Of a stretch of DNA of 50,388 nucleotides, positions 1,923 to 43,278 are shown piece by piece. The DNA lies in the NCBI GenBank assembly GCA_029934085.1, contig JAOZMY010000001.1:24031-74418 (forward strand), given 5' to 3'. A program made the translations under genes and the position numbers. The notes below the pieces were generated by a model. It did not search any database. It was not told where the DNA came from and worked only from the letters and a program-made list of their open reading frames with translations. This DNA is from a bacterium (lineage in GTDB: Bacteria > Desulfobacterota > S145-22). Positions within the stretch are counted from its first letter, which is position 1. Each line of letters begins with the position of its first letter.

Positions 1923-1988
1923 GGTTTACGTCCTCTGTAAATAAGTAGAGGGCATGGTGGATGTGCCACCATGCCCTGAGTATCTGTG

Positions 1989-3194
1989 TTATGGCCGTAG
2001 TTTTTTGACCTCTGCATCACTGGGCAAATAGTTTTTCCCGTCGCAGTATTTCCACTTGACCATGATGCCCTTTCCGTCCTTGAGAGCGGTGTAGCCAACG
2101 TAGGCGCCCATGGTCGACTGGTGGTCGATCTTACGATAGGTGATGGGACCAAACACACCGTTGAAGGTCAGGCCTTCCATGGCGTCAACCATCTTCTCCG
2201 TGTCGGTCGATTTGGCCTTTTTCAGCATGTGAGCGATGGACATCATCATCTCATAACCAACCACAGAACCTGTCCTGGGATAGGTGTTATACTTTGCCTG
2301 ATAGGCCTTGAGGAATTTCGTGTGGGCCTTGGTCTTGATGGCGTACCAGGGATATCCCGTCACCAGCCAGCCCACAGGGGCCTCGCCCTTCAAGGGATCG
2401 AGGTATTCGGGTTCACCCGTAAGCAGGCTTGCCACGAACTTGCCTTTGAAGAATCCTCTCAACTTGCCTTCCCGGACGAACTTGGCCAGGTCGCTTCCGA
2501 AGGTAACGTTGAAAATCGCTTCGGGGTTTGCGCGCTTGAGGGCCTGAATTTCAGCGCCGGCGTTGATTTTGAAGAGGGCGGGCCATTGTTCCGCCACGAA
2601 GGTCACATCCGGACGTTTCGCTTTCAAGACCTTCTTGAAGGCCTTGACGGCGTCTTTCCCATACGCATAGTTGGGAGCGATGGTGGCCCAGCGCTTGGCC
2701 GGATTTTTGGCGGCCTCGTCGGCGAGCATGGCGGCCTGCATGTAGGTCGATGGACGGAGCCGGAAGGTGTACCGATTCCCCTTCGCCCAGACCACGGCAT
2801 CCGAAAGCGGTTCGGCAGCAAGGTAAAAGACCTTGTTCCGTTTGGCGAAGTCGGTCAACGCGAGCCCAACATGTGAAAAGAACGAGCCCATAAGCAGGAC
2901 AACCTTGTCTTTGGTGACAAGTTCTTTGGCGATTCTGACGGCATTTCCAGGCTTGCCGGCATCGTCTCTTGAAACCACCTCGAGTTTTTTCCCGTTGATC
3001 CCACCCGACTTGTTGATTTCTTCAAGGGCAAGCTTCCACCCATTCCGGTAAGGGAAGGTAAAATTAGTTAGTTTGCTATATGTATTGATTTCTCCAACTT
3101 TGATGGTTCCCTCCGCGAATACGGAAGGGATACCGAACAGCATCGTAAGACACAATACCAAGATTGCGGTCAAAACGGTTTTACTGGCTTTCAT
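1989..3194 (-). CDS. LivK-family (type I periplasmic binding fold) ABC substrate-binding protein
   Basis: This 401-aa protein has a Sec signal peptide (MKASKTVLTAILVLCLTMLFGIPSVFA/EG). It has Peripla_BP_6-like features (IKVGEINTYS..., GGINGKKLEVVSRDDAGKP). It is the first gene of the transporter operon. Confidence 0.85.
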   Translation of the reverse strand: MKASKTVLTAILVLCLTMLFGIPSVFAEGTIKVGEINTYSKLTNFTFPYRNGWKLALEEINKSGGINGKKLEVVSRDDAGKPGNAVRIAKELVTKDKVVLLMGSFFSHVGLALTDFAKRNKVFYLAAEPLSDAVVWAKGNRYTFRLRPSTYMQAAMLADEAAKNPAKRWATIAPNYAYGKDAVKAFKKVLKAKRPDVTFVAEQWPALFKINAGAEIQALKRANPEAIFNVTFGSDLAKFVREGKLRGFFKGKFVASLLTGEPEYLDPLKGEAPVGWLVTGYPWYAIKTKAHTKFLKAYQAKYNTYPRTGSVVGYEMMMSIAHMLKKAKSTDTEKMVDAMEGLTFNGVFGPITYRKIDHQSTMGAYVGYTALKDGKGIMVKWKYCDGKNYLPSDAEVKKLRP

Positions 3195-3542
3195 TCTTTC
3201 CCTCCTGTTGATTTTAAATTTTCCCTATGGCAGAAGGTGGATTGAAATCCCTTTCTGCCTCTTAAATACTTCTTCTCCACCCCCTTTCTTTTCGTTCATT
3301 CAAAAGTATATTGTCTATTGCCTACGATTTTAGAGCAACCTTTAACATGGAGTAAAATCCCTGTCAAGGTTGATTCGGGTAATCGCTGAGGATGAAAAAT
3401 CGCGTGCAAAAAACGTTTCTTCAGGCTTGTCAAAACTTTGTCCCAGAAGGCGTTTTCCCCTTTTGAGAGCCCAAAATTTTTTCTTCCCAACCGCTTGACA
3501 AGGCAGGGAAAACCCGAAAAAAGAACTTGACAGAAAATTTAA

Positions 3543-3566
3543 TATATTGTAACAAATTACAATATA
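3543..3566. promoter_or_regulatory. Perfect inverted repeat TATATTGTAA-caaa-TTACAATATA, candidate operator
   Basis: Read directly: the arms 3543-3552 and 3557-3566 are exact reverse complements. The repeat lies about 60 nt upstream of the XRE-cupin regulator start and just downstream of a TTGACA hexamer (3527-3532). It sits in an AT-rich stretch of the divergent intergenic region. Confidence 0.45.
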
Positions 3567-3625
3567 GTTAATATGTTGATTTGCGCAAAATAAATTTTTC
3601 CTGTATAGGGGACAGAGGTTGATCA

Positions 3626-4177
3626 ATGGTTGATGTTATCGGCAGGAAGTTGCGGGAGCTACGACGAGCGAATCGCATGACGCTGAAGCAGGTGGCGAAG
3701 AAGGCGGGATGCACGGAATCTTATATCTCACAGCTTGAAAATGGGAATGCCAATCCTTCAATCGCAACTCTCAAGAAAATCGCGGCGGTTTTCAACGTTC
3801 AGATCATCGATTTTTTCATCGACCATGAAGAGGAAGCCCCGGTTGTAGTAAGAAAAAACGAGAGAATCGATATCGAATTTAAGGACGGGGGAAAAACCCA
3901 CATCCAATCTATGGTTAAAAACACGAAGAACAAGCGGATGGTTGCCTTTTATACCACCATTGATCCTGGGGGCGGTTCATCGGGGCTCTATTCCCATATT
4001 GGTGAGGAGTTTGGCCTGATCCTCTCGGGTGAAATGGAGTTGACGATAGAGGATAAGACATATCACTTGGAGGAAGGGGACAGCTTCTATTTCTCTTCGG
4101 CGCGTCCTCATGGCTTTTCGAATAAGGGTAAGAAAACGACGGTTGTCGCTTGGGTTGTCAGTCCGCCTACGTTTTAA
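3626..4177 (+). CDS. XRE-family HTH transcriptional regulator with C-terminal cupin domain
   Basis: This 183-aa protein has an N-terminal HTH_3 (LRELRRANRMTLKQVAKKAGCTESYISQLENGNANPSIATLKKIAAVF). It has a C-terminal cupin_2-like region (GEEFGLILSGEMELTIEDKTYHLEEGDSFYFSSARPHGF). Confidence 0.9.
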   Translation: MVDVIGRKLRELRRANRMTLKQVAKKAGCTESYISQLENGNANPSIATLKKIAAVFNVQIIDFFIDHEEEAPVVVRKNERIDIEFKDGGKTHIQSMVKNTKNKRMVAFYTTIDPGGGSSGLYSHIGEEFGLILSGEMELTIEDKTYHLEEGDSFYFSSARPHGFSNKGKKTTVVAWVVSPPTF

Positions 4178-4184
4178 GAATAAA

Positions 4185-5426
4185 ATGGAGTCGAGTGTGA
4201 AGAAGATCGCGTTTCTGGTGGGGCTTATTTTCTTGGTTGGATACCTTTCCCCGATTCCAGCCATCAGCGCCGACAAGATCAGTTTTGGGTTTGCCTTGCC
4301 ATTGACCGGTTCCCTCGCTGAAAGGGGGCGAAGGGCCCTCGATTCGTATAAATTGTGGGCGAAGAAGATGAATGCCGGGGGTGGAATCCTGATTGAAGGG
4401 AAACATTATCCGGTTGAACTTGTTTTTTATGACGATAAAAGCAATCCGGATTTGAGCGCTAGATTTTTTGAAAAGCTTGTAACGGTTGATAAGGTAGATT
4501 TACTGCTGGGTGGGATCGGAGCCCGACTTGTTTCGGCCGCAAGCGTCGTATCGGAAAAATACAAGTATCCGATGATCAGTGGAGAGGCGAACTCGGATTA
4601 CCTATTTGATCGAAACAACAGCTACTATTTTTCGACCTTGCCGAAAGTCTCCAAAGAGACCCGAGCGTGTGTCGATTTTTTGAAAAGGCTTAAAACCAAG
4701 CCAACCACTGTGGCGATCATCGGCTCTGATACTTCGCCATCTTCTCTGGTTTGTGAAGCCTTTAAGAAAGCCGTCGAGTCCTCTGGTCTCAAGATCGTCC
4801 ATTATGAACTCTTTCCCCTGTCGGTTAGCGACTACGGCACCACCCTTTCGAAAATCCAGGCGAAACACCCTGACATTCTGTTTGTGGGAAGCAGGGCGCT
4901 GAAATCGCTGAAGGGTATCGTCGAAGGTATGAAAAAAAATGGTTTCATGCCGAAAGCGGTTGTTCTGGGCGGCGGTTTGATGGTTCATGATCTCATGGCC
5001 ACGCTGGGGGAAGATAGTGACTATCTGTTTACCATGACAGAGTGGGTGTCGGAACTTCCTTATAAAGGCCCTGTGTTTGGAAGCGCCTCGGACTTTGACA
5101 AAGTGTATTATAAAGAGTACAAACGTCATTCTGAATACGTGGAAGCGGCGGTTGCCTCTGCGGCGGTGGTTCAGCAGTTGGCTTTGCAAAAGTTGGGTTC
5201 GGCACCGCCCTATGACGAAGCTGGACGTGAAGCTCTTATGAAGAAGCTTCACGATATTGATTTTGAAACCTTCTACGGGAAAGTCCGTTTTGGGAAAGAC
5301 GGTGCCAATTCGGCACATCCTTTAGTGATTATTCAAATCCGGGAAGGTAAGGTCGTTCCCGTTTACCCCGTGGAAGTGAAAAAAGCTGCCCCTGCCTATC
5401 CCGTGCCGTTGTGGGAAAAGCGTTAG
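4185..5426 (+). CDS. LivK-family ABC substrate-binding protein (second, divergent paralog)
   Basis: An ATG at 4185 gives MESSVKKIAFLVGLIFLVGYLSPIPAISA/DK, which is a signal peptide. The mature part is type I periplasmic binding fold-like (FALPLTGSLAERG..., VELVFYDDKSNPD). The ORF-track start at 4110 overlaps the regulator gene and adds an Arg-rich non-signal extension, so I prefer 4185. Confidence 0.8.
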   Translation: MESSVKKIAFLVGLIFLVGYLSPIPAISADKISFGFALPLTGSLAERGRRALDSYKLWAKKMNAGGGILIEGKHYPVELVFYDDKSNPDLSARFFEKLVTVDKVDLLLGGIGARLVSAASVVSEKYKYPMISGEANSDYLFDRNNSYYFSTLPKVSKETRACVDFLKRLKTKPTTVAIIGSDTSPSSLVCEAFKKAVESSGLKIVHYELFPLSVSDYGTTLSKIQAKHPDILFVGSRALKSLKGIVEGMKKNGFMPKAVVLGGGLMVHDLMATLGEDSDYLFTMTEWVSELPYKGPVFGSASDFDKVYYKEYKRHSEYVEAAVASAAVVQQLALQKLGSAPPYDEAGREALMKKLHDIDFETFYGKVRFGKDGANSAHPLVIIQIREGKVVPVYPVEVKKAAPAYPVPLWEKR

Positions 5427-5529: not shown

Positions 5530-7464
5530 GTGCATTATCCGTCTATTTTCTCCGAAGGGAAAATAGGAACCCTGACCCTCAAGAATCGTATCATTATGGC
5601 ACCCGTGGACACGAATTTCGCCGATTATGAGGGAAAGGTTTCCGAGAAGATGCTCGCGTATTACGAGATGCGGGCCCGAGGCGGCGTGGGAATGATCATC
5701 GTGGAAAACAGCCAGGTGGAAGGGCCCCGCGGGAAACATACCGTCCGTCAGTTGTGTGTCTCAGATGACCGTTTCATCCCCGGTCTCAAACGTCTCGCCT
5801 TTGCCATTCATAAACACCAAATTCCCGCCATTCTCCAGCTTCATCACGCGGGACGGCAGACCACGCGGGAGTTTACCGGAGGGCTTCAGCCGGTAGCTCC
5901 ATCGGCCATTCCCTGTAAGCATCTCAAAGAAACACCAAGGGCCTTGATGCTGGACGAGATCGAGGAGATTGAAAACAGGTTTACCAAGGCGGCAATCAGA
6001 GCGAAGACAGCGGGGTTCGACGGGATTGAGCTACACGGCGCGCACGGTTATCTTATCGGTCAGTTCATGTCTCCCTATACCAATCATCGGGAAGACGCCT
6101 ATGGCGGAGATTTCGAAGGACGGATGCGTTTCCCTCTTCGTATCATCGAAAAGATACGAGCCGCCGTTGGAGAGGAATTTCCTATTCTTTTCCGATTGAG
6201 CGCCGATGAGTTCGTGGAAGGCGGTATCAAACTGGAAGAGGCGAAACGGATCGCGGTTCGCCTTGAGGAAGCGGGGATAGATGCCCTGCACGTTTCGGCT
6301 GGGATCTACGAGAGCCTCATGACCATCTTGGAGCCCATGAGTTACAAAGAGGGATGGCGAGTCTATCTCGCAAAGGAGATTAAAAAACTCGTCTCTGTCC
6401 CGGTGATCACGGTGGGAAACATCCGGTATCCCGACACGGTGGAAGAGATTCTTTCTAAGGGTGACGCGGATTTCGTGGCTCTCGGTCGCGCCCTCATCGC
6501 CGATCCCGAATGGCCTTTGAAGACGAAAGAAGGACGGATCAAGGAGATTCGTTACTGCATTTCTTGTAATGAAGGCTGCCTTGGCAATCGCCTTACCGAT
6601 TACATCGGCTGTTCCATCAATCCAGAAGTGGGGCGTGAAAACCGGTTGGGGAAAAAGAAGAAGCCGGTGACCCCGCGTCATGTCACCGTCGTAGGGGCGG
6701 GGCCCGCGGGGATTACGGCGGCCCTCCAGGCGGACAAGATGGGGCATCATGTTGTTCTGTTTGAGCGCAACCCGTGGATCGGCGGGCAGTTACGGCTCTT
6801 TGCCTCCATGCCGACAAAACACCGGATCAACGACCTGTTGAATTTCTTTGAGTACCAGCTCAAGAGCTCAAACGTGGAACTGAGGTTGGGAACGGAGTTC
6901 GACCCCCAAAACCCTAACACACCCCTCGATGTCGTTGTCATTGCCACGGGGTCAATCCCTTCCATTCCCATTCTCCCCGGGATCAAGGACGATCGGATTA
7001 TCACCCCGGTACAGTGTCTGGACGGTCAGTGCCCTAAAGGGAATGAGGATGTTCTCGTCGTCGGCGGGGGTGTGACGGGTTGTGAGCTCGCCCTTTTCCT
7101 CAAGTCTCTGGGGAACCGGGTCATCCTCATCGAAAAAGAGGATCGTCTCGCCGCGGATCTGGAGGAAATTTCCCGGATGGATCTTCTGAAACGGATGGCA
7201 AAGGAGAAACTCCAGGTTTTTCTCCGTATGTCACTTCGAGAGATTACCGAAGAAGGTGCGATCCTTGCGGATAGCGAAGGGAAGAAATTCATGGTGAAAC
7301 CGACAAAAATTGTCCTTGCCATGGGAAACCATGCCCAGGCGATCTTACGCCGCCGGTTGAAAGGGAAGGCCAACCGGTTGTTTGTGATTGGGGACGCAAA
7401 AGAGCCTCGCACGATTTACTATGCCATCCATGACGCCTATAAAGCGGTTCTTTCCATTACATAA
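5530..7464 (+). CDS. FadH / 2-enoate-reductase family FeS flavoprotein (OYE-like FMN domain, 4Fe-4S, FAD/NAD(P) domain)
   Basis: The OYE TIM-barrel motifs are present (LKNRIIMAPV, GFDGIELHGAHGYLIGQFMSP). The Cys cluster CISCNEGCLGNRLTDYIGC is typical of the 2,4-dienoyl-CoA reductase / enoate reductase / TMADH family. A Rossmann motif VTVVGAGPAGITAA follows. The likely start is GTG 5530, 6 nt after AAAGGAG; the ORF-track start is 5506. Confidence 0.85.
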   Translation: MHYPSIFSEGKIGTLTLKNRIIMAPVDTNFADYEGKVSEKMLAYYEMRARGGVGMIIVENSQVEGPRGKHTVRQLCVSDDRFIPGLKRLAFAIHKHQIPAILQLHHAGRQTTREFTGGLQPVAPSAIPCKHLKETPRALMLDEIEEIENRFTKAAIRAKTAGFDGIELHGAHGYLIGQFMSPYTNHREDAYGGDFEGRMRFPLRIIEKIRAAVGEEFPILFRLSADEFVEGGIKLEEAKRIAVRLEEAGIDALHVSAGIYESLMTILEPMSYKEGWRVYLAKEIKKLVSVPVITVGNIRYPDTVEEILSKGDADFVALGRALIADPEWPLKTKEGRIKEIRYCISCNEGCLGNRLTDYIGCSINPEVGRENRLGKKKKPVTPRHVTVVGAGPAGITAALQADKMGHHVVLFERNPWIGGQLRLFASMPTKHRINDLLNFFEYQLKSSNVELRLGTEFDPQNPNTPLDVVVIATGSIPSIPILPGIKDDRIITPVQCLDGQCPKGNEDVLVVGGGVTGCELALFLKSLGNRVILIEKEDRLAADLEEISRMDLLKRMAKEKLQVFLRMSLREITEEGAILADSEGKKFMVKPTKIVLAMGNHAQAILRRRLKGKANRLFVIGDAKEPRTIYYAIHDAYKAVLSIT

Positions 7465-7475
7465 GGGGTAAAGCG

Positions 7476-7976
7476 ATGGAAGAGAAATTGGGCGAAGAAA
7501 TCGTTGAGATCTCGGCTATGGTTAATGGGACCTCCGTTGTCCTACGAACGCCGGCCAACCGGACAATGCTCTCGATTCTACGGGAAGACCTTCACCTTAC
7601 GGGAGTCAAGGAGGGATGTGGAATCGGGGAATGTGGGGCCTGCACGGTGATTATGGACGGAAAGGTGGTCAATGCCTGCATGGTCCTGGCTCCCAAGATG
7701 GACGGGGCTACCATAACCACCATTGAAGGGTTGGGGGATGAAGAAAACCTCCATCCGTTACAAAAGGCCTTTATCGAGCATGGGGCTGTCCAATGCGGGT
7801 TTTGTACGCCGGGGATGATCCTTTCCGCCAAGGCGCTCTTGGACGAGAAACCCCATCCAACACGCCTGGAGATTCGTGAGGGGATTTCGGGAAATCTATG
7901 TCGTTGCACGGGGTATCAGCAGATTGTGGATGCCATTGAGTCGGTGGCCGAAGGCGGAATGGAGGAGGGAAGATGA
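7476..7976 (+). CDS. Xanthine dehydrogenase-family Mo-hydroxylase, 2x[2Fe-2S] small subunit
   Basis: This 166-aa protein has GCGIGECGACTV (plant-type 2Fe-2S). It also has QCGFCTPGMI...CRCTGY (second 2Fe-2S). Both are characteristic of CoxS/XdhC/NdhS-type subunits. Confidence 0.92.
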   Translation: MEEKLGEEIVEISAMVNGTSVVLRTPANRTMLSILREDLHLTGVKEGCGIGECGACTVIMDGKVVNACMVLAPKMDGATITTIEGLGDEENLHPLQKAFIEHGAVQCGFCTPGMILSAKALLDEKPHPTRLEIREGISGNLCRCTGYQQIVDAIESVAEGGMEEGR

Positions 7977-8851
7977 GCTATCCCAAGTTTCGTTACGCAG
8001 TGCCGAAGACGGTGCGAGATGCGGTTGAAATCCTGCACGCGGCAACAGAGAAAGGGGAGAAGGCGATTGTCTTGGCGGGGGGGACCGACCTGATGGTTCA
8101 GCTTAGGGAGAAATCCCTGGTTCCTGACTTGGTGGTGGATATCTCCAGGGTTACGTCACTTACAAAGATCGAACGGATGGGGAACGAAATACGCATAGGC
8201 CCCCTGGTGACCCATTCCATGCTGGCATCTTCGGACCTGATTCGAGAATACGTTGGGGTATTATCGGAAGCGGCGAGAACCGTTGGATCCCCTCAGATCA
8301 GAAACCTGGGGACCCTTGGAGGGAACATCGTAAACGCCTCCCCCGCGGCAGATACCATTCCAGCCCTTGTGATCCTTGATGCTCAGTTAATCCTAACGGG
8401 GCCGAAGGGGGATCGAACTCTCCCGATAACGGATTTTTTCGAGGGTCCTTACGAGACCGTTATCGAGGCGGATGAGCTTCTGACGGGTGTTATTGTTCCT
8501 CTGCCCCCTCCCTCTGGGCGGGCTATTTTCCTGAAATTGGCGCGGCGGAAGGCCCTGGCCATCGCGCGTATGAACCTTGCCTGTATGCTGTATTACAATC
8601 GGCAGAAGGAGGTTTTTGAGTGGGTCCGTCTCTGTGTAGGGTCTTCGACGCCACGTCCGGTTAGAATGACGGAGGCAGAGAAGATTTTAGAAGGGCAACC
8701 TTTTACGGATGTGGTTCTCCAGAAGGCGGGACAGGCGGCGGCGGAGCAGATGGTCGCCTTGAGTGGTCTTCGTTCTTCCACGGCGTACAAAAAACCCGTG
8801 GTGGGAGACCTCGTCATCCGCGCCGTCAAACTGGCGGTTGAAAAAGGGTAG
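7973..8851 (+). CDS. Xanthine dehydrogenase-family Mo-hydroxylase, FAD-binding medium subunit
   Basis: This 292-aa protein has LAGGTDLMVQL and GTLGGNIVNASPAADT motifs (FAD_binding_5 / CO_deh_flav_C). It shares an ATGA overlap with the upstream gene. Confidence 0.9.
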   Translation: MSYPKFRYAVPKTVRDAVEILHAATEKGEKAIVLAGGTDLMVQLREKSLVPDLVVDISRVTSLTKIERMGNEIRIGPLVTHSMLASSDLIREYVGVLSEAARTVGSPQIRNLGTLGGNIVNASPAADTIPALVILDAQLILTGPKGDRTLPITDFFEGPYETVIEADELLTGVIVPLPPPSGRAIFLKLARRKALAIARMNLACMLYYNRQKEVFEWVRLCVGSSTPRPVRMTEAEKILEGQPFTDVVLQKAGQAAAEQMVALSGLRSSTAYKKPVVGDLVIRAVKLAVEKG

Positions 8852-8860
8852 GGGGGTACG

Positions 8861-11137
8861 ATGATAACCAAGGTCGTTGGGAAACGGGTTGAGCGTGTCG
8901 GAATTCTTGACAAGGTTACGGGAAAGGCAAAATACGGTGCGGATCTCGAGATCCCGAATGCGCTAATCCTTAAGGTTTATCGTAGTCCCGTTCCTCACGG
9001 GATCGTTCGGAAGATAGATACCTCGGAGGCCGCTGGTGTCGATGGGGTTGTTAGGATCTTCACGGCAAAGGATATTCCAGGTGAGAACCTCTACGGCATC
9101 ATCAACAAGGACCAACCCGTCCTTACGGGGGAGAAAGTCCGTTTTGAAGGGGATCCAATTGTCCTGGTGGCCGCAGAGGATGAGGAGAGCGCGGATAGGG
9201 CCCTGGCCGCCCTACGAGTGGAAATCGATGAATTGCCGGCGGTTTTTGATCCCAACGAGGCCCTGAAACCGGAGGCCCCTTCCATCCATGAAAAGGGAAA
9301 CCTCCTCTTCGAGCGAAAGATCGTCAAGGGGGATGTGGAGAAAGGCTTTACCGCCTCGGATATCGTCATCGAGGAAACCTACGAGACGAATATGCTGGAA
9401 CACGCCTACATCGAACCCGAAGTGGGTGTGGCCTATAGGGACGAGGATGGATGTGTTGTCGTCTTGGTAACCACTCAAAACCCCCACTCCGATCATGCCC
9501 AGCTTGTTTCGATCTTGGGGGTGGAGCCGGAAAAGGTCCGTGTCATCCAAACGGAGACTGGTGGCGGATTTGGAGGAAAGCTTGATATTTCCGTCCAGCC
9601 CTTTCTTGCCCTGGCTGCCTACCATCTGGATCGGCCGGTCCGGATGGTTTACAGTCGAGAAGAATCTTTCCAGGCCACGGCGAAACGCCATCCTCTGAAG
9701 ATCCGAATGAAGACGGGGGCCACCCGGGACGGAAAACTCACGGCAATGAAAGCGGAGATCATCGCGGACACGGGGGCTTACGGCTCTTATGGGATCGCGG
9801 TGGCAACGCGAGCGGCCGTCCACGCGACGGGGCCCTACGAGGTCCCAAATGTTTATGTGGAAAGCAAGGCGGTCTATACCAACAATAACTGGTCGGGGGC
9901 CATGCGGGGGTTTGGAGTGCCTCAAATCGCCGTTGCCCACGAGTCTCAGATGGACAAGCTGGCGGAAAGCCTCGGTTTTGACCCGATTACCTTCCGTATG
10001 ATGAATGCCTTCACGACAGGGTCCGTTACCCCGACGGGCCAGACGCTGAACGCGAGTGTGGGTATTCGGGAGACCTTGAAGAAGATTCGTCCGTATTACG
10101 AGCAATTACTCCGTGAGGCTGATGCGACGCAGCTTTCGGGCCTCACCGGCATGAAATACGGAGTGGGTGTTGCCTCCATGTGGTATGGGATAGGAAATAC
10201 CGGACATCCCAACCCCTCCAGCGCCCAGATCGAGGTGGACCACGAAGGAAATGTGACCCTTTTCACGGGTGCGGCAGACATCGGACAGGGATCGGATACG
10301 GTATTGGTGCAGATTGCGGCGGAAACCCTTGGCCTCCCCTTCGATAAAATTCACCTGGTTCGGGCCGATACAACCCTGACCACGGACGCCGGCGCCACTT
10401 CCGCCTCCCGCCAGACATATATCTCCGGTAGGGCGGTTTATGAAGCAGCCCTTGAAGTCAGAAAACAGCTTGTTGAAAGGGCGGCTAAGGTTTTCAAGGT
10501 TCCCGCGAACCTTATGGTGTGCGAGGGAGGTTTTTTCTTTCCTCAATATCGGGAATTCCAGAAATTATCCCTCACGGATATCATCCGGCGTAGTTTGGTA
10601 CCGGGGGAGGTAATCCGAGGAGAGGGATATTTCAACCCCGAAACAACCTCTCTCGATCCGGAAACGGGTCAAGGTGTTCCTTACACGACCTATGCCTTTG
10701 CGTCTCAGGTCAGCCTCGTGGAGGTGGACCTGGTCACGGGACAAGTTGGGGTCGTGAAGACGATCAGCGCACACGACGTAGGGAAGGCCGTCAATCCCGC
10801 CAATGTGGAAGGGCAGATCTTCAGCGGCGTTGCCATGGGGATCGGTATGGGGTTGTTCGAACAGTTCTATCCGAGAAAGACAAAGTCGCTCGATACGTAT
10901 TTGATTCCTACGGCCATGGATGTCCCGGAGATAACGCCGGTTATCGTGGAAGTTCCCGAGCCCACGGGTCCTTTTGGTGCTAAAGGGGTGGGAGAACCCG
11001 CCCTGATTCCCACGGCCCCCGCCATCCTGAATGCCATCCATCATGCGACGGGATGGTGGGTCAATCGAATTCCAGCGGATTTGGAAACTATAAGGGGATT
11101 AACATCGGCGGATGAGATGGAAAAATCTAAAAGCTGA
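8861..11137 (+). CDS. Xanthine dehydrogenase-family Mo-hydroxylase, molybdopterin-binding large subunit (single chain)
   Basis: This 758-aa protein has ETGGGFGGKLD and a C-terminal GAKGVGEPAL (catalytic Glu motif). It lacks the CODH active-site loop (AYxCSFR), so it is a hydroxylase rather than a CO dehydrogenase. Confidence 0.9.
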   Translation: MITKVVGKRVERVGILDKVTGKAKYGADLEIPNALILKVYRSPVPHGIVRKIDTSEAAGVDGVVRIFTAKDIPGENLYGIINKDQPVLTGEKVRFEGDPIVLVAAEDEESADRALAALRVEIDELPAVFDPNEALKPEAPSIHEKGNLLFERKIVKGDVEKGFTASDIVIEETYETNMLEHAYIEPEVGVAYRDEDGCVVVLVTTQNPHSDHAQLVSILGVEPEKVRVIQTETGGGFGGKLDISVQPFLALAAYHLDRPVRMVYSREESFQATAKRHPLKIRMKTGATRDGKLTAMKAEIIADTGAYGSYGIAVATRAAVHATGPYEVPNVYVESKAVYTNNNWSGAMRGFGVPQIAVAHESQMDKLAESLGFDPITFRMMNAFTTGSVTPTGQTLNASVGIRETLKKIRPYYEQLLREADATQLSGLTGMKYGVGVASMWYGIGNTGHPNPSSAQIEVDHEGNVTLFTGAADIGQGSDTVLVQIAAETLGLPFDKIHLVRADTTLTTDAGATSASRQTYISGRAVYEAALEVRKQLVERAAKVFKVPANLMVCEGGFFFPQYREFQKLSLTDIIRRSLVPGEVIRGEGYFNPETTSLDPETGQGVPYTTYAFASQVSLVEVDLVTGQVGVVKTISAHDVGKAVNPANVEGQIFSGVAMGIGMGLFEQFYPRKTKSLDTYLIPTAMDVPEITPVIVEVPEPTGPFGAKGVGEPALIPTAPAILNAIHHATGWWVNRIPADLETIRGLTSADEMEKSKS

Positions 11138-11213
11138 AGTCTGGAGTCTAAAGATCCTTTCGGGCTTCGGGCTATAAAAGTCTTCAACCTAAATTTATGT
11201 TTGGAGGTGTGTC

Positions 11214-12365
11214 ATGGGAAAGGTGCTCATACGGAATATAGGTACGCTCGTGTCCGGAGACGTTTCGGATCCGATCCTGGATGCGGATTCAATTCTCATC
11301 TCGGATGGTAAGATCGAGGCCGTTGGGACGGATCTCTCCGCTGAAGGTGTGGACATCATCGTCGATGCCCAAGGGACGACCGTAACCCCGGGGTTGATGG
11401 ATTCTCACTGCCACGTGGTCATAGGAGACTTCACACCGAGGCAAAGGATGCTCGATTTCCTGGAGAGCGAGCTCCACGGGGGTGTCACCCAGGTCATATC
11501 AGCGGGTGAAGTTCACCTGCCCGGTCGTCCCAAGGATGCGGCCGGTGTCAAGGCGCTGGCGATCCTGGCGGCGAAGGCGTTCAACAATTTCAGGCCCGGC
11601 GGGATCAAGGTGCGCGGTGGTGGCTTGATTCTGGAACCTGGATTGACGGAAGAGGATTTTGCCGAAATGGCTCGGGAAGGGGTCAAAACCGTGGGCGAGA
11701 TCGGGCTTGGAAAGGTGAAAAAACCGGAAGAGGCGGCGCCGATGGTGGAGTGGGCCAAGAAGTATGGCATGACCGTGATGATGCACACGGGGGGAACCTC
11801 TATCCCGGGGAGTTCTGTGGTGACGGCGGACCAGGTCATTGCCACGAATCCCGACGTGGTCTCCCATCTTAACGGGGGACCAACCTCAGTATCTCCTGAA
11901 GAGGCCCGGAAGATCGTTATGGAAACGGACTTGGTCTACGAGATTTCACATTGCGGGAATCCGAAGATGATTTTGGAGGTTTGCCGACTTACCAGGGAAA
12001 AGAATGCCTATCACCGTGTGATTATTGGAAACGACCACCCCTCTGGGACCGGAGTCGTTCCCCTTGGGATCCTCAGGGTCTTGAATATGATTGCCTCCAT
12101 CGGAGAGATTCCGCCCGAAATCGCCGTCTGTATGGCAACGGGGAATACGGCCCGGGTTCATAAGCTGGATAGCGGTTTCATCGAGCCGGGGAAAGCTGCT
12201 GACCTTGTCATCATGGATGCCCCCATGGGCTCCGTGGGTGACGATGCCCTTTCTGCCCTCGAGGCTGGGGATATCCCGGGCGTGTCCAAAGTCATCGTGG
12301 ATGGGGAAATCAAGGTTCAGAAGAGCAGGAACACCCCGCCCCCCAAGCGTGCCGCAACGCTGTAA
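11214..12365 (+). CDS. Amidohydrolase-superfamily enzyme, enamidase-like (cyclic enamide/amide C-N hydrolase)
   Basis: This 383-aa protein has the N-terminal sandwich ILISDGKIEAVG. The metal motif is TVTPGLMDSHCHV (HxH). It also has HTGGTSIPGSS and SHLNGGPT. Its size and its position next to an Hnr-like FeS protein and a Mo-hydroxylase match enamidase of the nicotinate fermentation pathway. The family call is firm; the enamidase subfamily is an inference. Confidence 0.7.
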   Translation: MGKVLIRNIGTLVSGDVSDPILDADSILISDGKIEAVGTDLSAEGVDIIVDAQGTTVTPGLMDSHCHVVIGDFTPRQRMLDFLESELHGGVTQVISAGEVHLPGRPKDAAGVKALAILAAKAFNNFRPGGIKVRGGGLILEPGLTEEDFAEMAREGVKTVGEIGLGKVKKPEEAAPMVEWAKKYGMTVMMHTGGTSIPGSSVVTADQVIATNPDVVSHLNGGPTSVSPEEARKIVMETDLVYEISHCGNPKMILEVCRLTREKNAYHRVIIGNDHPSGTGVVPLGILRVLNMIASIGEIPPEIAVCMATGNTARVHKLDSGFIEPGKAADLVIMDAPMGSVGDDALSALEAGDIPGVSKVIVDGEIKVQKSRNTPPPKRAATL

Positions 12366-12383
12366 AAGATGTAGGAATGCCAC

Positions 12384-13913
12384 GTGAAGGTCAACCCGGA
12401 AAAGTGTAAAGGGTGTGGATTCTGCGTTGAGGTGTGTCCCCTGGAGCTTGTTTCTCTCCAGGAAAAGGTTGCATCCATCTCCACGGGATGTGTTCAGTGT
12501 CAAGCGTGTGTGAAGGTTTGTCCCGCGGGGGCTATCGATAGTGATACCAGTTTTCCGGAGGGAACGATTCAATGTGATGCCTGTCCTATTGGGTGTCACA
12601 TCCCTCCTGGAAAGACGGGCGCATGTAGGCGGTACATCAACAGGGATGGCGAGTTGGTAAGGACAACTCTCCTTCATACCTATCAGGATGTCGAAGGGCT
12701 TCTCAAACCTCTTTGGGCAGAGGAGATCCAGTCTCCTCTCATTACGGGGATCGGGGCTGGAACGACCTATCCGGACTACCGTCCCGCCCCCTTTATCGTA
12801 AAAGGCGAGGCCGGGGGTGTGGATGTGGTTACGGCTGTGACGGAGGCCCCTCTCAGTTACAGTGGCGTCAAGGTAAAGATCGACACGGATGAACCAATCG
12901 GAGATGAGGGGGCGACGGTTTATCACGGGCGCCACAAGGTGGGACATGTCACTACGGAAGAATACGGGTCAAAGATGCTCTCTCTTGGGGGTGCCAATCT
13001 TCTGACTGGGAAGGATGGGTTTGTCGTTGCCCGGGTGGTTTCAGATATTGCCAACAAAAGGGAAGTGACACTCAAGGTTAAAGATGGCGCGGAGCTGGTC
13101 CTCAAGGTGGGGAATCCTCCGGTCATCGACGGCCGGGTCATCGAAAAGATGCGTGTGGGGTGTGGCAGCGCCTCTATGGGGTTATTCGCCCCGCATTTTC
13201 GCCATGCCGCCGACGAGGTGATCGTTATCGACTCCCATGTAACGGGTGTCTTTACCGAGCACACGGCGGGGAGATATCTCGGGATTCCTTTTAGCGGGGT
13301 CCAGTTGAAGTTCAAGAAGAGTACACCCGGGAGATATTTTGGGGATCACGGCAAGGGCTGGGGTGGAACCAGTATCGAGGATCCCGTCTCTCTGATTAAA
13401 GGTATCGATCCTGACCATGGCAGGGTTGGGATGACCATCCTCTTTACCGAGACCACCGGTCAAAAATCCAAGCTGGTTCGTTGGAAGGGGAACTTGGATT
13501 TTGAAGAAATTCCTTTGACGGAAGGGGCCCGAAATGCCGTGGAGCAGATTCGGAAAACGAGCCAAAACTCCCGTGTCTCGGCGGTCTACGTGGGCGGCTG
13601 CGGCGGAAGCGCCCGTGTCAGTGTGGTACTCTATCCTGTGAAACTCACCGAAGCCGTTCATGCGCGGAAGGTGAAACTGACAGTAGGAGGCGCAACCCCC
13701 TTCATCTTTCCAGGGGGCGGGATTACCTTCATGGTTGACGTGGAAGAGGTTAAAACGGGTGCTTTTACATGGGTTCCAACACCGGCAACCGTTGCCCCTC
13801 TCGAGTTTACCATGACATTGCGGGACTACGAGGGGATGGGAGGCTATACGGAAGCACTCATTGATTGGGATGATTTGATGAAGTGGCTTTCCGAACGGAA
13901 GGAAGGGGAATAG
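12384..13913 (+). CDS. FeS protein with N-terminal 2x[4Fe-4S] ferredoxin domain, 6-hydroxynicotinate reductase (Hnr)-like
   Basis: GTG start. CKGCGFCVEVCP and CVQCQACVKVCP are two 4Fe-4S motifs. An extra Cys cluster follows (CDACPIGCH...GAC). About 400 aa follow that carry no motif I can name. The architecture, size and context are consistent with Hnr (covalent flavin, one 2Fe-2S, two 4Fe-4S) as described for Eubacterium barkeri. Confidence 0.55.
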   Translation: MKVNPEKCKGCGFCVEVCPLELVSLQEKVASISTGCVQCQACVKVCPAGAIDSDTSFPEGTIQCDACPIGCHIPPGKTGACRRYINRDGELVRTTLLHTYQDVEGLLKPLWAEEIQSPLITGIGAGTTYPDYRPAPFIVKGEAGGVDVVTAVTEAPLSYSGVKVKIDTDEPIGDEGATVYHGRHKVGHVTTEEYGSKMLSLGGANLLTGKDGFVVARVVSDIANKREVTLKVKDGAELVLKVGNPPVIDGRVIEKMRVGCGSASMGLFAPHFRHAADEVIVIDSHVTGVFTEHTAGRYLGIPFSGVQLKFKKSTPGRYFGDHGKGWGGTSIEDPVSLIKGIDPDHGRVGMTILFTETTGQKSKLVRWKGNLDFEEIPLTEGARNAVEQIRKTSQNSRVSAVYVGGCGGSARVSVVLYPVKLTEAVHARKVKLTVGGATPFIFPGGGITFMVDVEEVKTGAFTWVPTPATVAPLEFTMTLRDYEGMGGYTEALIDWDDLMKWLSERKEGE

Positions 13914-13927
13914 CTGGGGTTGTGTCG

Positions 13928-14821
13928 ATGATACGCGAGCGAACCTGTGTTTCTTCCAATGATGTGTCCAGAGACATTCCCGAAAGAATCTTCTCTGCCG
14001 ATGTTCGAGTTTCCTATGGCCCCATGGAGATCGGAATTCAGGTGAACGGAACGGAAAGGGGTGTGCGGAAATCCTGTGAAGATGTAGATAAAAAGGCCCG
14101 CCTGCTTCTGGATGACGTTAAAAGGTTTCATCCCCTGCTGAAGTTGCGGGGTGAGGAGTTGAGGGTAAAATCACGCTGGCCACGAGTGGTTCAGAGGATG
14201 GTGGAAGCCGTTCAAGTTGTTTCAGCGGAAACATTGACTCCCATGGCTGCCGTGGCAGGGGCCATTTCCGATGAACTACTCTTGGATTTGCAAGACGCGG
14301 CGGATGGTTTTTTAACAAAGGTCCTCGTGAACAACGGAGGGGACATGGCCCTTTTTTCACCCGATGAACCAGTGCGTGTGGGAATCCGAGGCGCGGTGCC
14401 TGAAGGAATGTCCATGCGTGAAGTGCTGATTTCGGAGGTGGATGAGCCGTATGGCCTTGCGACGAGTGGGTGGCGTGGAAGGAGCTTTAGTCAGGGTATC
14501 GCCGATGCCGTGGTCGTGGCGGCCGACTCGGGGGCTTTGGCAGACGCGGCGGCCACGTTTGTCGGGAACTACGTGAAGGAGGAAGGGCACGGAAGGGTTC
14601 GGCGCCGAAAGGCTTCAGAACTTGATCCCATGACGGATATTCCAAACCTCATGGTTACCGTTTCCTGTGATCAGCTAAGTGAAGATGAAAAACTGACTGC
14701 TCTTGAAAACGGTGGTGCCATGGCGTCTTCCCTCTTGGGTAGGGGGATTATATGGGGCGCGGGGATCTATCTGCAGGGAGAGTCGATGGAATTGTCAAAA
14801 GGTGTCATAAACTTTAAATAA
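13928..14821 (+). CDS. UPF0280-family protein (ApbE-like fold)
   Basis: It carries the motif LATSGWRGRSFSQGIADAVVVAADSGALADAAATFVGN. This resembles the UPF0280 signature and echoes the ATSG motif of ApbE flavin transferases. The start is ambiguous: GTG 13883 in the ORF track overlaps the upstream gene, and GTG 13922 and ATG 13928 follow GGAAGGGGAA. Confidence 0.6.
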   Translation: MIRERTCVSSNDVSRDIPERIFSADVRVSYGPMEIGIQVNGTERGVRKSCEDVDKKARLLLDDVKRFHPLLKLRGEELRVKSRWPRVVQRMVEAVQVVSAETLTPMAAVAGAISDELLLDLQDAADGFLTKVLVNNGGDMALFSPDEPVRVGIRGAVPEGMSMREVLISEVDEPYGLATSGWRGRSFSQGIADAVVVAADSGALADAAATFVGNYVKEEGHGRVRRRKASELDPMTDIPNLMVTVSCDQLSEDEKLTALENGGAMASSLLGRGIIWGAGIYLQGESMELSKGVINFK

Positions 14822-14834
14822 TTAAAGGAGGTGC

Positions 14835-15416
14835 ATGATGGAGATTCGAAAGATGGTAACGGTCGTGGACGAGATTCGTGAAGAGATGGGACAGAAGGTG
14901 GATCCTCCGCATCGAAAGGCGGCGGCCATCGCTGTGATCAAGAATCCTTTTGCGGGGAAATATCAGGAGGATCTTTCCGATTTGATGGATATCGGAGAAC
15001 AACTGGGAAGTATGCTGGGAGAACTTGCCGTAAAGGCCCTCGGGATTCCCAAAGAGAAATCCGAAAGCTATGGGAAGGGGGCCATTGTTGGATTGAATGG
15101 TGAGCTTGAGCACGCTGCCGCCATCCTTCATCCCAAGCTGGGCAAACCCTTCCGGGAAGCCCTTGGGGGCGGGAAGGCGATCATCCCTTCCGCCAAGAAA
15201 ATGGGTGGTCCGGGAACCCCCCTCGATGTTCCGCTACACTTCAAGGATGCCGCTTTCGTGCGGTCTCATTTCGATGCCATGGAGATCCGTGTTCAGGATG
15301 CACCACGGGATGACGAGATTGTGGTTGCCTTGGTAGTGACCGATTCCGGCCGTCCTTTGGCCAGGGTCGGTGGCCTGAAAAAAGAAGAGGCAAAATGTGA
15401 GGATGGCCTGAGATAA
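14835..15416 (+). CDS. 'Amino acid synthesis' family protein (PF06684/DUF1185-like), function unknown
   Basis: This 193-aa protein has MEIRKMVTVVDEIREE...AAAIAVIKNPFAG...YGKGAIVGLNGELEHAAAILHPKLG...DAPRDDEIVVALVVTDSGRPLARVGG. This matches my recollection of the family consensus. An AAGGAGG RBS is present. Confidence 0.75.
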   Translation: MMEIRKMVTVVDEIREEMGQKVDPPHRKAAAIAVIKNPFAGKYQEDLSDLMDIGEQLGSMLGELAVKALGIPKEKSESYGKGAIVGLNGELEHAAAILHPKLGKPFREALGGGKAIIPSAKKMGGPGTPLDVPLHFKDAAFVRSHFDAMEIRVQDAPRDDEIVVALVVTDSGRPLARVGGLKKEEAKCEDGLR

Positions 15417-15423
15417 CAATAGA

Positions 15424-15463
15424 GCTCCCGGGTAAGTTTACTTCTCCGGGAGCCTATATTTTT
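15424..15463 (+). terminator. Rho-independent terminator closing the catabolic operon
   Basis: The stem is GCTCCCGG (15424-15431) paired with CCGGGAGC (15446-15453). The loop is 14 nt and is followed by CTATATTTTTA. It lies 8 nt after the stop codon of the last gene. Confidence 0.85.
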
Positions 15464-15560
15464 ATCAATTTTCTACTCTTTTTTTATACATATTACCCAT
15501 AAATCCTTTAGACTTTTGGAAATACCGGAATAGAAAATAGGCATTTTTCATTTTATTCAA

Positions 15561-15588
15561 TTGACATTTTAGGAATAAGGTTTATAAT
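15561..15588 (+). promoter_or_regulatory. Near-consensus sigma70 promoter (TTGACA-16 nt-TATAAT) for the EF-G/birA/coaX unit
   Basis: TTGACA lies at 15561-15566 and TATAAT at 15583-15588. An A/T-rich UP-like tract precedes them (15455-15560). Confidence 0.7.
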
Positions 15589-15629
15589 ATCCAAAACTAA
15601 TTGGTTTCATATTGAGATACGGACCAGAA

Positions 15630-17660
15630 ATGAAGAAGGGCCTGAAAAACATACGAAATATCGGGATCATTGCCCATATCGACGCGGGGAAAACTACCGT
15701 GTCGGAGAGGATGCTTTATTATACGGGTAAGATTCACAAAATGGGCGAGGTCCACGATGGGGATACGGCGTTGGACTGGATGGCCCAGGAGCAGGAACGG
15801 GGGATTACCATTACCTCCGCTGTCACAAACTTTTTTTGGCGGGATTGCGAGATCCACCTTATCGATACCCCGGGGCACGTGGATTTTACCATTGAAGTCG
15901 AGCGTTCCCTGAGGGTCTTGGATGGGGCCGTTGTCGTGTTTTGCGGGGTGGGAGGGGTGGAACCCCAATCCGAGACGGTGTGGCACCAAGCGGATAAATA
16001 TCGAGTCCCTCGCATTGCCTTTATCAATAAGATGGACAGGATAGGGGCCGATTTCGATCACGTTATTTCCATGATGGAGGAGAGGTTTAATACGCCACCT
16101 GTGATTTTGCAGAGGCCCATTGGAGTTGAAAGCGCCTTCAAAGGTGTGGTGGACCTGGTGAGGCAAAAGGCGATTGTCTGGTCGGAGGACGGCCTGGGTA
16201 ACGAGTACGAGGTGGCGGAAATCCCTCAGGACATGAAAGAGGAAGTGGCTGCTTACCGTGAGAAGCTTCTTGAGGCGGTAGCCGAGGCGGACGATGAACT
16301 GATGGAGCGTTATTTGGAAGAAGGGGACCTCCCTGAAGGGGATATCCTTAAGGCCCTCCGAAAACGAACCCTCAACATGGAAATCGTTCCCGTCCTTTGT
16401 GGCTCTGCTCTGAAAAATAAGGGTGTCCAACCTTTGATGGATGCTATCGTGGATTTTCTGCCTTCTCCTTTAGAGGTTCCCCCCATTTCAGGGGTGGATC
16501 CCGAGACGGGGGAGACCATTACCCGGCCGCCGGACATCAAGGCGCCATTTTCGGCCCTCGTTTTTAAGGTCATGATGGATCAGGGGAGAAAGTTGTGTTT
16601 TGTCCGTGTCTATTCGGGACAGGTCAAAGTGGGGGAAGAACTCTATAATCTGAATCTGAGGACAAAGGAAAAGGTTGCCCGTATCCTGGAGATCCATGCC
16701 AACCATCGTAAGCGAATCGATACGGCAAAGGCGGGTGATATTGTCGGTGTCATTGGGCTGAAGAGGTCTTCCACGGGGAACACCCTTTGCGACGCCTCAG
16801 ACCCTATTTTACTGGAGCCCATCGACAGCTATGAACCCGTGATTTCCGTGGCCATCGAGACGGTCTCCAATCAGGAGGCGGAGCGGGTTCAGGAAGTCCT
16901 GACCCAGATCATGGAGGAAGATCCCACGTTTCAGGTCAAAACGGACGAGGAAACGGGTCAAGTGGTCATTTCGGGTATGGGGGAGCTCCACTTGAACGTG
17001 GTGACCACCCGATTGATGGAGGATTATGGCCTGAAGGTTCACGTGGGACGTCCCCAGGTCGTTTATCGAGAGACGATTACCCGATCTGTCAAGTCTACGG
17101 GGGTTTTTGACCGTGAAATGGCAGGCATGCATGGGTTTGCCACCGTTACGATAGAGATGAGCCCCGCGGAGAGGGGAACGGGAAATCACTATACGGACAG
17201 GGAGGTAGAAGAAATTCTCCCGCCGGAATATCGTCAGGTGGTCCGAGAAGGGATTATGGATGCCTTGTCTTTCGGCCCCCTTTCCGGGAGCCCGATGATC
17301 GATGTTGATGTAATTTTGAAAGATGTAAAATGGGAGGAAAACGATCATGCGATTTCATCGCTGCGTATTGCAGCCGCAACAGCCGTAAGGGAGGGAACTC
17401 AGCGGGCGGAGATCATTCTTCTGGAGCCCATCATGGAGCTTGACATCCTCACGCCGGAGGAGTTCGTCGGAGAAGTTATTTCAGATATTAACAGCCGGAA
17501 AGGTGAAGTTCACAGCCTTGAAAACAAAGGGAAAATTACACTGATCCAGGCGCGCGTGCCCTTGAAGCAACTTTTTGGATATTCAACGACGTTACGTTCG
17601 CTAACCCAAGGGAGAGGAAACTTTACCATGCGCTATTTCCGGCATGACCAAATCACATAG
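15630..17660 (+). CDS. fusA: Elongation factor G paralog (standalone, outside an rpsL-rpsG-fusA-tuf context)
   Basis: Motifs include [42 protein letters not shown] and NKMDR, and domains II-V are present. The ATG at 15630 gives the usual 8 residues before RNIGI; the ORF-track TTG at 15612 has no SD. Confidence 0.9.
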
Positions 17661-21542: not shown

Positions 21543-21546
21543 CGGT

Positions 21547-42808: not shown

Positions 42809-43278
42809 TGAGTCCCCCCCTGTTGGTGAGTGCCTGCCTCGTGGGGTTCCGATGCCGATATGACGGAAAGGATAAACTCGACCTCAATGTTTTGAGACGT
42901 CTGGAAGGACATTCGTGGTTGGTCGTTTGTCCCGAGCAACGGGCGGGACTTTCGACCCCGAGGGATCCCATCATGTTTGAAGGAGGAACGGGGCGTGATA
43001 TCCAGGAGGGGAGGGCGAGGATTGTCCGAGTCGATGGAACCGATGTGACGGAAGAATTGATAGAGGCCTCTCGGTCCATTATCCGCATGGCCAAACTCTA
43101 TGGGGTGAGGACGGGAATCTTAAAGGAAAGAAGTCCTTCGTGTGGGGTGAGAAGGACCTATCGAGGCGATGATCTCGTGGAGGGTATGGGAATCTTTGCG
43201 GCCATGCTCCAGAGGGAAGGAGTGGAGATTTTTAGTGAGGAGACCCTTGGACTTTGGAAAGCGGGGCATTATCTATGA
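42805..43278 (+). CDS. DUF523 family protein (family that includes the 2-thiouracil desulfidase TudS)
   Basis: It has LLVSACLVGFRCRYDGK (conserved Cys-rich N-terminal motif) and ERSPSCG. The start (GTG 42805 or ATG 42808) overlaps the purN stop. Confidence 0.75.
   Translation: MMSPPLLVSACLVGFRCRYDGKDKLDLNVLRRLEGHSWLVVCPEQRAGLSTPRDPIMFEGGTGRDIQEGRARIVRVDGTDVTEELIEASRSIIRMAKLYGVRTGILKERSPSCGVRRTYRGDDLVEGMGIFAAMLQREGVEIFSEETLGLWKAGHYL

Follow-up and report, generated by a model that had tools for sequence, protein, structure and literature searches.

A predicted nicotinate catabolic operon in an uncultured Thermodesulfobacteriota bacterium, with an ene-reductase-type flavoprotein in place of a clustered aldehyde dehydrogenase

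Is an operon that pairs a molybdenum hydroxylase with an iron–sulphur reductase and a ring-opening amidohydrolase a re-wired module for the breakdown of some N-heterocycle, or is it part of the known nicotinate pathway in an unfamiliar host? The question is raised by positions 5530–15416 (+ strand) of a 50,388-nt stretch of DNA, here called the window, from an uncultured member of the Desulfobacterota (Thermodesulfobacteriota; GenBank assembly GCA_029934085.1, contig JAOZMY010000001.1, positions 24,031 to 74,418). All coordinates given without a locus name are positions in this window. An initial annotation had likened the operon to the nicotinate fermentation genes of Eubacterium barkeri (Alhapel et al. 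2006) but described it as truncated and re-wired, and possibly as an undescribed variant pathway. Our comparative analysis points to a simpler answer with one novel element. The locus is very probably a regulated unit for uptake and catabolism of nicotinate and probably serves nicotinamide as well, after deamidation. The truncated module and its two accessory genes are features of known clusters and are not new. The novelty lies in a variant specific to this lineage, in which an Fe–S ene-reductase-type flavoprotein is found in place of the clustered aldehyde dehydrogenase.

Open reading frame (ORF) listing and translation, together with Pfam and NCBIfam scans, bear out the eight co-directional enzyme genes of the initial annotation and the domains assigned to them. 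The gaps between successive genes are 11, −4, 9, 76, 18, 14 and 13 nt, with 103 nt separating the first from the binding-protein gene 5′ of it (4185–5426), in keeping with the approximately 100 nt or less originally described; the several 4-nt overlaps, however, come down to a single junction at 7973–7976. The strong terminator that was said to close the operon is also there: an intrinsic terminator at 15424–15465 (+) comprises a hairpin (15424–15453, −22.8 kcal/mol, z = −5.9 against shuffled sequences) and a U-rich tract, UAUAUUUUUAU. The eight-gene block is syntenic on independent contigs at 77–97% identity and is thus more than a chance assembly. There is no GC anomaly across the operon, and recent horizontal transfer is rejected on this ground.

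Counterparts of the Eubacterium barkeri nicotinate genes

An enamidase alignment, scanned against the representative genomes of GTDB, yielded 80 loci, including the characterised E. barkeri cluster (L001), within an overall set of 84 that were given L numbers and compared by tblastn and by de novo clustering of ORFs. Every one of the seven genes between 7476 and 15416 has a counterpart in the E. barkeri cluster. The HxH amidohydrolase encoded at 11214–12365 (+) matches the structure of E. barkeri enamidase (Ena; PDB 2VUN) over residues 1–382 with 61% identity (E = 3.6e-151), the next PDB match being at 3e-8, and in the pairwise alignment the metal-ligand positions H67, H69, H193, H220 and D276 are invariant. 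The possibility that the protein belongs to another amidohydrolase clade, raised when it was first called enamidase-like, can be set aside on these figures.

Similarly, the 509 amino acid protein encoded at 12384–13913 (+) aligns with E. barkeri 6-hydroxynicotinate reductase (Hnr; L001 1833–3332) over 498 amino acids at 50% identity (E = 6e-150), well past the ferredoxin domain to which the resemblance might have been confined. All 12 cysteines are kept in this alignment: eight in two [4Fe–4S] motifs and four in a further cluster, C64-x2-C67-x3-C71-x9-C81. A PDB sequence search with this protein matched ferredoxin domains alone, and no Pfam family matched the catalytic body (residues ~60–509). 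The AlphaFold (AF2) model is confident (pLDDT 90.3, pTM 0.83) and a Foldseek search with it against the PDB returned nothing beyond the N-terminal ferredoxin domain, so that the body has no mechanistic analogue; Hnr would then have a fold that is predicted with confidence but is without a relative among solved structures. The Hnr family counts thousands of full-length metagenome members.

The remaining three genes of this group encode the subunits of a nicotinate dehydrogenase (Ndh) of the xanthine dehydrogenase family. NdhS (7476–7976, +; two [2Fe–2S] clusters; Pfam Fer2_2 and Fer2) and the FAD subunit NdhF (7973–8851, +; Pfam FAD_binding_5 and CO_deh_flav_C) are 51 and 35% identical to their E. 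barkeri namesakes. The 758 amino acid molybdopterin subunit (8861–11137, +), which carries GGGFGGK and GVGE motifs, has as its top PDB match 3HRD_A, the NdhL chain (residues 4–411, 49% identity, E = 1e-125), whilst 3HRD_B, the NdhM chain, covers residues 432–739 (46% identity, E = 3.5e-76). As the two chains cover successive parts of the protein, the gene is an NdhL–NdhM fusion. The initial annotation was therefore right that the subunit is one chain rather than split, but this is not unusual, a single-chain subunit being common among relatives.

Because all seven genes have counterparts in a characterised cluster, 7476–15416 reads as the canonical upper nicotinate module, predicted to take nicotinate through 6-hydroxynicotinate and 6-oxo-1,4,5,6-tetrahydronicotinate (THON) to 2-formylglutarate and ammonia. 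NdhS, NdhF and the fused NdhLM would hydroxylate C6 of nicotinate, giving 6-hydroxynicotinate; Hnr, with its two [4Fe–4S] clusters, its further four-Cys cluster and a flavin, would reduce the C4=C5 bond to yield THON; and enamidase would hydrolyse the lactam and then the resulting enamine, releasing (S)-2-formylglutarate and ammonium. The hydroxylate, reduce, hydrolyse logic first proposed for the operon is upheld by these orthologues, and the established chemistry of the three steps is unchanged by our results.

Both accessory genes have counterparts in E. barkeri, the ApbE-like one following hnr and the PF06684 one following ena, and across the whole set of shared proteins identities range from 31 to 62%. 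As both belong to the canonical cluster, they are no sign of re-wiring. In several other respects, however, the two clusters differ: the window lacks the lower-pathway genes Hgd, Hmd, Mgm, Mii, MutL-like reactivase, DmdAB and Dml; its molybdopterin subunit is fused where that of E. barkeri is split; its regulator is an XRE-cupin protein rather than a LysR protein; a Liv-type ABC system serves for uptake in place of a PTS_EIIC_2-type permease; and it has an additional OYE/FadH-type Fe–S flavoprotein. A neighbourhood survey had been suggested as a check, and it shows the block of Ndh, Ena, Hnr, ApbE-like and PF06684 genes recurring in dozens of genomes, both in Firmicutes and in approximately 45 Desulfobacterota loci.

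Two accessory proteins

The UPF0280 protein encoded at 13928–14821 (+; NCBIfam PRK04334, E = 5.5e-66), whose most likely start is the ATG at 13928 rather than an upstream GTG at 13883, is 31% identical to the product of the E. barkeri gene overlapping hnr at its end (L001 3289–4161), itself a Pfam ApbE match. When a profile of UPF0280 orthologues was compared by hhalign with the canonical ApbE flavin transferase that the window also encodes, the two matched with a probability of 90% (E = 1.6e-6) across a GGD/TSG/ADAxAT core, and the orthologues carry the annotation PF27030 AbpE_bact. The ApbE-like gene adjoins hnr in 32 of 36 loci, E. barkeri included, but it is the least conserved gene of the operon (51–59% identity, against 79–95% for its neighbours). 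E. barkeri Hnr reportedly contains a covalently bound flavin, a point that the initial annotation also gave, and it is for this reason that we put forward the hypothesis of a dedicated enzyme: the product of the ApbE-like gene that follows hnr would be a flavin transferase and attach the covalently bound flavin of Hnr. The canonical ApbE used in the comparison is encoded 5 kb from the operon (20478–21668, −) and has an unusually long N-terminal extension of ~90 residues, rich in Ser and Phe.

The second accessory protein, encoded at 14835–15416 (+), belongs to PF06684 (DUF1185; Pfam E = 5.3e-76; PDB 2QTP, E = 5e-76) and is 62% identical to the product of the E. barkeri gene directly after ena. 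Its gene lies within 3 kb of that for Ena in 35 of 42 loci. PF06684 genes also accompany enamidase-type amidohydrolase genes at loci that lack Hnr and Ndh (L017, L021, L025, L031, L033 and L076–L080), and that they are kept there suggests that the protein works with the hydrolase and not with the pathway as a whole. It may help enamidase, and might do so by dealing with the enamine or imine; its fold is shared by the RidA-type enamine/imine deaminases. Two long-unknown families thereby acquire testable roles, UPF0280/ApbE-like proteins as Hnr flavin transferases and PF06684 proteins as enamidase partners.

The fourth step and the OYE/FadH-type flavoprotein

What, then, becomes of 2-formylglutarate? 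In E. barkeri it enters a B12-dependent lower pathway, and the genes for this are adjacent to the upper module in Eubacterium, Acetobacterium, Desulfosporosinus and Desulfitobacterium and, more generally, in most Firmicutes loci with a full upper module. Queries with E. barkeri Hgd, Hmd, Mgm, Mii, MutL-like reactivase, DmdAB and Dml against all loci by tblastn gave no match in the 50-kb window, as the initial annotation had noted for the operon's neighbours, nor within 10 kb in the approximately 45 Desulfobacterota loci. The other large ORFs of the window (at least 150 amino acids, by Pfam scan) are housekeeping genes: an EF-G paralogue, birA, coaX, nusA, infB, truB, pnp, relA, purMN and gltB. 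Fermentation of 2-formylglutarate by the B12 route would thus not be encoded at this locus.

Clusters that stop at the upper pathway have a precedent. According to the text of PMC3511419 (Shettigar 2012), Azorhizobium and Bradyrhizobiaceae have clusters for the first three steps that also encode an ABC transporter and a pair of proteins, conserved but of unknown function, which we assume to be the UPF0280 and PF06684 proteins; in the Azorhizobium route the product proceeds via glutarate (PMC3511419; PMC9304392). The window resembles these clusters in having the first three steps, a transporter of the ABC type and a pair of conserved proteins and in lacking the B12 lower pathway, but whilst those clusters occur in aerobic alpha-proteobacteria, the host here belongs to an anaerobic Thermodesulfobacteriota lineage. 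Within the window itself there is no gene of a glutarate pathway. The text of PMC3511419, its figure aside, makes no mention of an OYE-type gene. Of the suggestion that the operon might be an undescribed variant pathway, the truncated upper-only layout accordingly falls away as already known from that text, and the lineage-specific OYE gene stands.

Closer to hand are the other Desulfobacterota clusters (L027–L075), which come from Desulfomonilaceae, Desulfobacterales and Syntrophaceae metagenome-assembled genomes. They share with the window an XRE-cupin regulator, a Liv-type ABC or TRAP transporter, Ndh, Ena, Hnr, ApbE-like and PF06684 proteins at 34–83% identity. In approximately 35 Desulfobacterota nicotinate loci, and in a few from other phyla, tblastn also detects an aldehyde dehydrogenase resembling methylmalonate-semialdehyde dehydrogenase (MMSDH), the gene for which, in Desulfobacterota, is usually located just 5′ of those for Ndh or Ena. 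Its best family is the CoA-acylating MMSDH (TIGR01722, 2e-101, under the model cut-off), and in its active site an Arg immediately precedes the catalytic Cys (GQRC; for example, L041 4443–5924). As 2-formylglutarate is a 2-substituted malonate semialdehyde, this enzyme probably, by analogy, converts it to glutaryl-CoA or glutarate, a step that fits the Azorhizobium glutarate route. Five related clusters, including L034, encode a PncA nicotinamidase that scores above the NCBIfam cut-off (for example, L064 5459–6169), a point in favour of nicotinate, and of nicotinamide after deamidation, as the substrate. Together, the MMSDH-like enzyme and PncA imply a putative nicotinamide to glutaryl-CoA route in Desulfobacterota, of which we found no description in the literature searched.

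That sulphate reducers can oxidise nicotinate completely has been established at the level of physiology ever since Desulfococcus niacini was described, and in the literature searched we found no paper on the genes. The present locus and its relatives supply a concrete upper-pathway gene set for the Desulfobacterota.

In the lineage of the window this place in the cluster is filled differently. The MMSDH-like enzyme has no tblastn match in the window or in L032, L044 and L057; instead, just 5′ of Ndh, there is a gene (5530–7464, +) for a 644 amino acid OYE/FadH-type flavoprotein (Pfam Oxidored_FMN, 7e-80; Pyr_redox_2, 8e-32). The initial annotation had recognised a FadH/enoate-reductase-type FeS flavoprotein, but gave it no role. 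Its domains are as described: an FMN barrel, a CISCNEGC...C (CxxCxxxC...C) [4Fe–4S] motif, two GxGxxG dinucleotide sites and FAD/NAD(P)H domains, together with the HGAHGY motif of true ene-reductases. In architecture and cofactor motifs the protein is like the FMN/Fe–S/FAD ene-reductases, a family that includes FadH, 2-naphthoyl-CoA reductase, the clostridial 2-enoate reductases, BaiCD and bilirubin reductase, and its best PDB matches are 2-naphthoyl-CoA reductase (6QKG, 1.5e-87) and FadH (1PS9), at about 1e-85. It is, however, no more than 50% identical to anything beyond its own clade. It falls below every NCBIfam equivalog cut-off (511 versus 793, 460 versus 825 and 429 versus 750), and hence outside the named subfamilies BaiCD, BilR, mycofactocin-linked and FadH that these define. 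The orthologues form a tight clade (76–97% identity), beyond which the nearest proteins, at up to 50%, are named "NADH oxidase".

The OYE gene is seen in the window, in L032, L044 and L057, as contig-edge fragments in L039 and L077 and on the metagenome contigs L081–L084; it is directly 5′ of ndhS in all of these loci, and in every context examined its orthologues occur solely in the nicotinate operon. It is never found together with the MMSDH-like gene in one locus: the two are mutually exclusive. The core enzymes of the two types of cluster are 57–70% identical.

Fungal nicotinate catabolism provides a precedent, the OYE-family protein HxnT saturating a hydroxypyridine ring there (PMC9304392). 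With low confidence, we suggest that the OYE protein of the window acts as an NAD(P)H-linked ene-reductase on a C=C bond of the pathway, and rank this role first among those considered, ahead of coupling Ndh to Hnr through NAD(P)H and, third, of acting as a 2-enoate reductase in a lower pathway whose genes lie elsewhere. The candidate bonds, put forward equally tentatively, are those of the pyridone or THON ring and of the enol or enamine of the ring-opened product. A bolder form of the same idea, that the protein is a non-orthologous replacement of the aldehyde-oxidising fourth step and gives the nicotinate ring a third, reductive fate, is one that we hold as a possibility well short of being probable. 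Such a fate might take the form of NAD(P)H-dependent saturation of THON, of reduction of the 2-formylglutarate enol or enamine, or of an NAD(P)H-driven bypass of, or partner for, Hnr. Were it true, the reductive OYE step would be an undescribed branch of anaerobic nicotinate catabolism in Thermodesulfobacteriota; either way, the two alternative fourth-step genes make the fate of 2-formylglutarate in these anaerobes testable.

Several points weigh against the reading of the locus as a nicotinate unit with a reductive fourth step and a dedicated flavin transferase. The enzyme functions of this lineage are predictions from its genes, and an identity of 46–61% with the E. barkeri enzymes leaves room for a close analogue of nicotinate as the substrate. 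Genes for the lower pathway or for an aldehyde dehydrogenase may lie elsewhere in the genome, outside the 50-kb window. Sequence puts no constraint on what the OYE protein does, its catalytic motifs being the same as those of its generic "NADH oxidase" relatives: a comparison of 17 clade with 103 outgroup sequences found differences at seven peripheral positions, none of them catalytic, and with no clade-specific change in the active site there is no clue to the substrate. A close relative, L034, whose Ena is 91% identical, is without both the OYE and the ApbE-like genes, so that neither can be strictly needed by the core pathway. Finally, the canonical ApbE acceptor motif, [ST]GA[TS], was not found in Hnr, where the nearest conserved stretch is GAGT[TN]YP; this stretch and the invariant Cys260 are the candidate sites left for flavin attachment, the candidate residues being Thr127, Thr128 and Cys260. 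In L034 (regions 1–2500 and 7362–9629) genes 5′ of ndhS encode instead a 2Fe–2S/2×[4Fe–4S] protein and a ThiF-family protein.

Four other explanations bear on these findings. Since the hydroxylation and reduction steps of the established pathway are redox-neutral overall, the OYE protein might be an electron-coupling module that hands electrons from Ndh-derived NAD(P)H on to the low-potential clusters in Hnr, allowing a redox-balanced, ferredoxin-independent hydration of nicotinate. It has the parts for this (an NAD(P)H site, FAD, a [4Fe–4S] cluster and FMN), its nearest relatives outside the clade are, as their name implies, NADH:acceptor oxidoreductases, and its gene is translationally close to ndhS, with a gap of 11 nt. 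Yet the protein retains an intact His-x-x-His-Gly-Tyr motif, by which true ene-reductases bind their substrate, in operon layout the protein takes the place of an aldehyde dehydrogenase and not of a redox partner, and other lineages do without any such module. We consider electron coupling rather unlikely.

It is less likely still that the same enzymology is directed at another substrate, a pyridine or aza-arene carboxylate such as a substituted nicotinate, with the OYE protein supplying an extra reduction. This would give a place to a reductase that has none in the nicotinate pathway as described and would suit a regulator and transporter that are unlike those of E. barkeri, in addition to the range of identities given above. 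All five cluster-specific proteins, and not the generic ones alone, are nevertheless orthologous to those of the nicotinate cluster, the close relatives have a clustered nicotinamidase, and the core identity to the aldehyde dehydrogenase-type clusters gives no sign of a divergence in specificity.

The window spans only 50 kb, and the operon could in principle be the first half of a full fermentation of the E. barkeri type, with hgd, hmd, mgm, mii, dmd and dml elsewhere and the OYE protein serving as a 2-enoate reductase on 2-methyleneglutarate or something similar; the clostridial 2-enoate reductases are, after all, in the same enzyme family. That none of the approximately 45 Desulfobacterota loci has a lower-pathway gene within 10 kb, when most Firmicutes loci with a full module keep theirs adjacent, and that the MMSDH-like enzyme of most Desulfobacterota loci points to a glutarate or glutaryl-CoA route, make this very doubtful. 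A purine or xanthine operon, made up of a xanthine dehydrogenase and a cyclic amidohydrolase, is next to inconceivable and was rejected on model scores and PDB matches: the molybdopterin subunit scores well against the XdhA and PucD models but remains under the equivalog cut-offs (613 versus 784 and 571 versus 780 for the XDH/PucD models), its best solved relatives are NdhL and NdhM, and Ena and Hnr have specific orthologues in the amidohydrolase and the Fe–S protein.

Transport, regulation and flanking genes

The locus is wider than the eight enzyme genes and, as the initial annotation had it, the operon is led by an XRE-cupin regulator (3626–4177, +) and a binding protein of its own (4185–5426, +); to these a divergent transporter gene pair on the minus strand (57–3194) can be added. 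The regulator combines an XRE-type helix-turn-helix domain with a cupin domain in a PuuR-like architecture (Pfam HTH_3 and Cupin_2), its NCBIfam PuuR match being under the cut-off, and its orthologues head at least 16 Desulfobacterota nicotinate loci. 5′ of its gene, and conserved in an alignment with four relatives, is a promoter block (3527–3572, +) made up of an invariant TTGACA (3527–3532) followed by an AT-rich inverted repeat (3537–3552 and 3557–3572) with 16-nt arms that are 88% complementary. We infer that the inverted repeat acts as an operator through which the XRE-cupin protein would control the promoter at ~3527–3572. None of the 84 loci contains the exact palindrome TTGTAA-N4-TTACAA, and when the spacer was set to 3 nt the window gave only a chance-level match. 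An Rfam scan of the whole window found no riboswitch or other RNA family, Moco and NAD riboswitches included.

The solute-binding protein encoded within the operon has a signal peptide (Pfam Peripla_BP_6, E = 4.3e-47), and its orthologues in other nicotinate loci (43–55% identity) usually have permease and ATPase genes after theirs. The divergent pair encodes a 621 amino acid fused LivH/LivM-type ABC permease (57–1922, −; two Pfam BPD_transp_2 domains, E = 6.4e-71) and a second, 401 amino acid periplasmic binding protein (1989–3194, −; Pfam Peripla_BP_6, E = 1.7e-67). The ATPase genes of this transporter are located past the start of the window; in L081, where the binding-protein gene is syntenic, there is a syntenic gene for a 623 amino acid permease together with an ABC_tran gene. 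The substrate would thus be taken up by a Liv-type ABC system that has two binding proteins.

Elsewhere in the window, a 476 amino acid ORF without a Pfam match (43254–44684) is located between genes for a 2-thiouracil desulfurase and an AAA_33 kinase-like protein. Directly 3′ of the operon, a perfect sigma-70 consensus (15561–15588; TTGACA, 16 nt, TATAAT) precedes the gene for the EF-G paralogue (15612–17660), which is syntenic in this position in those close relatives whose downstream flank is visible.

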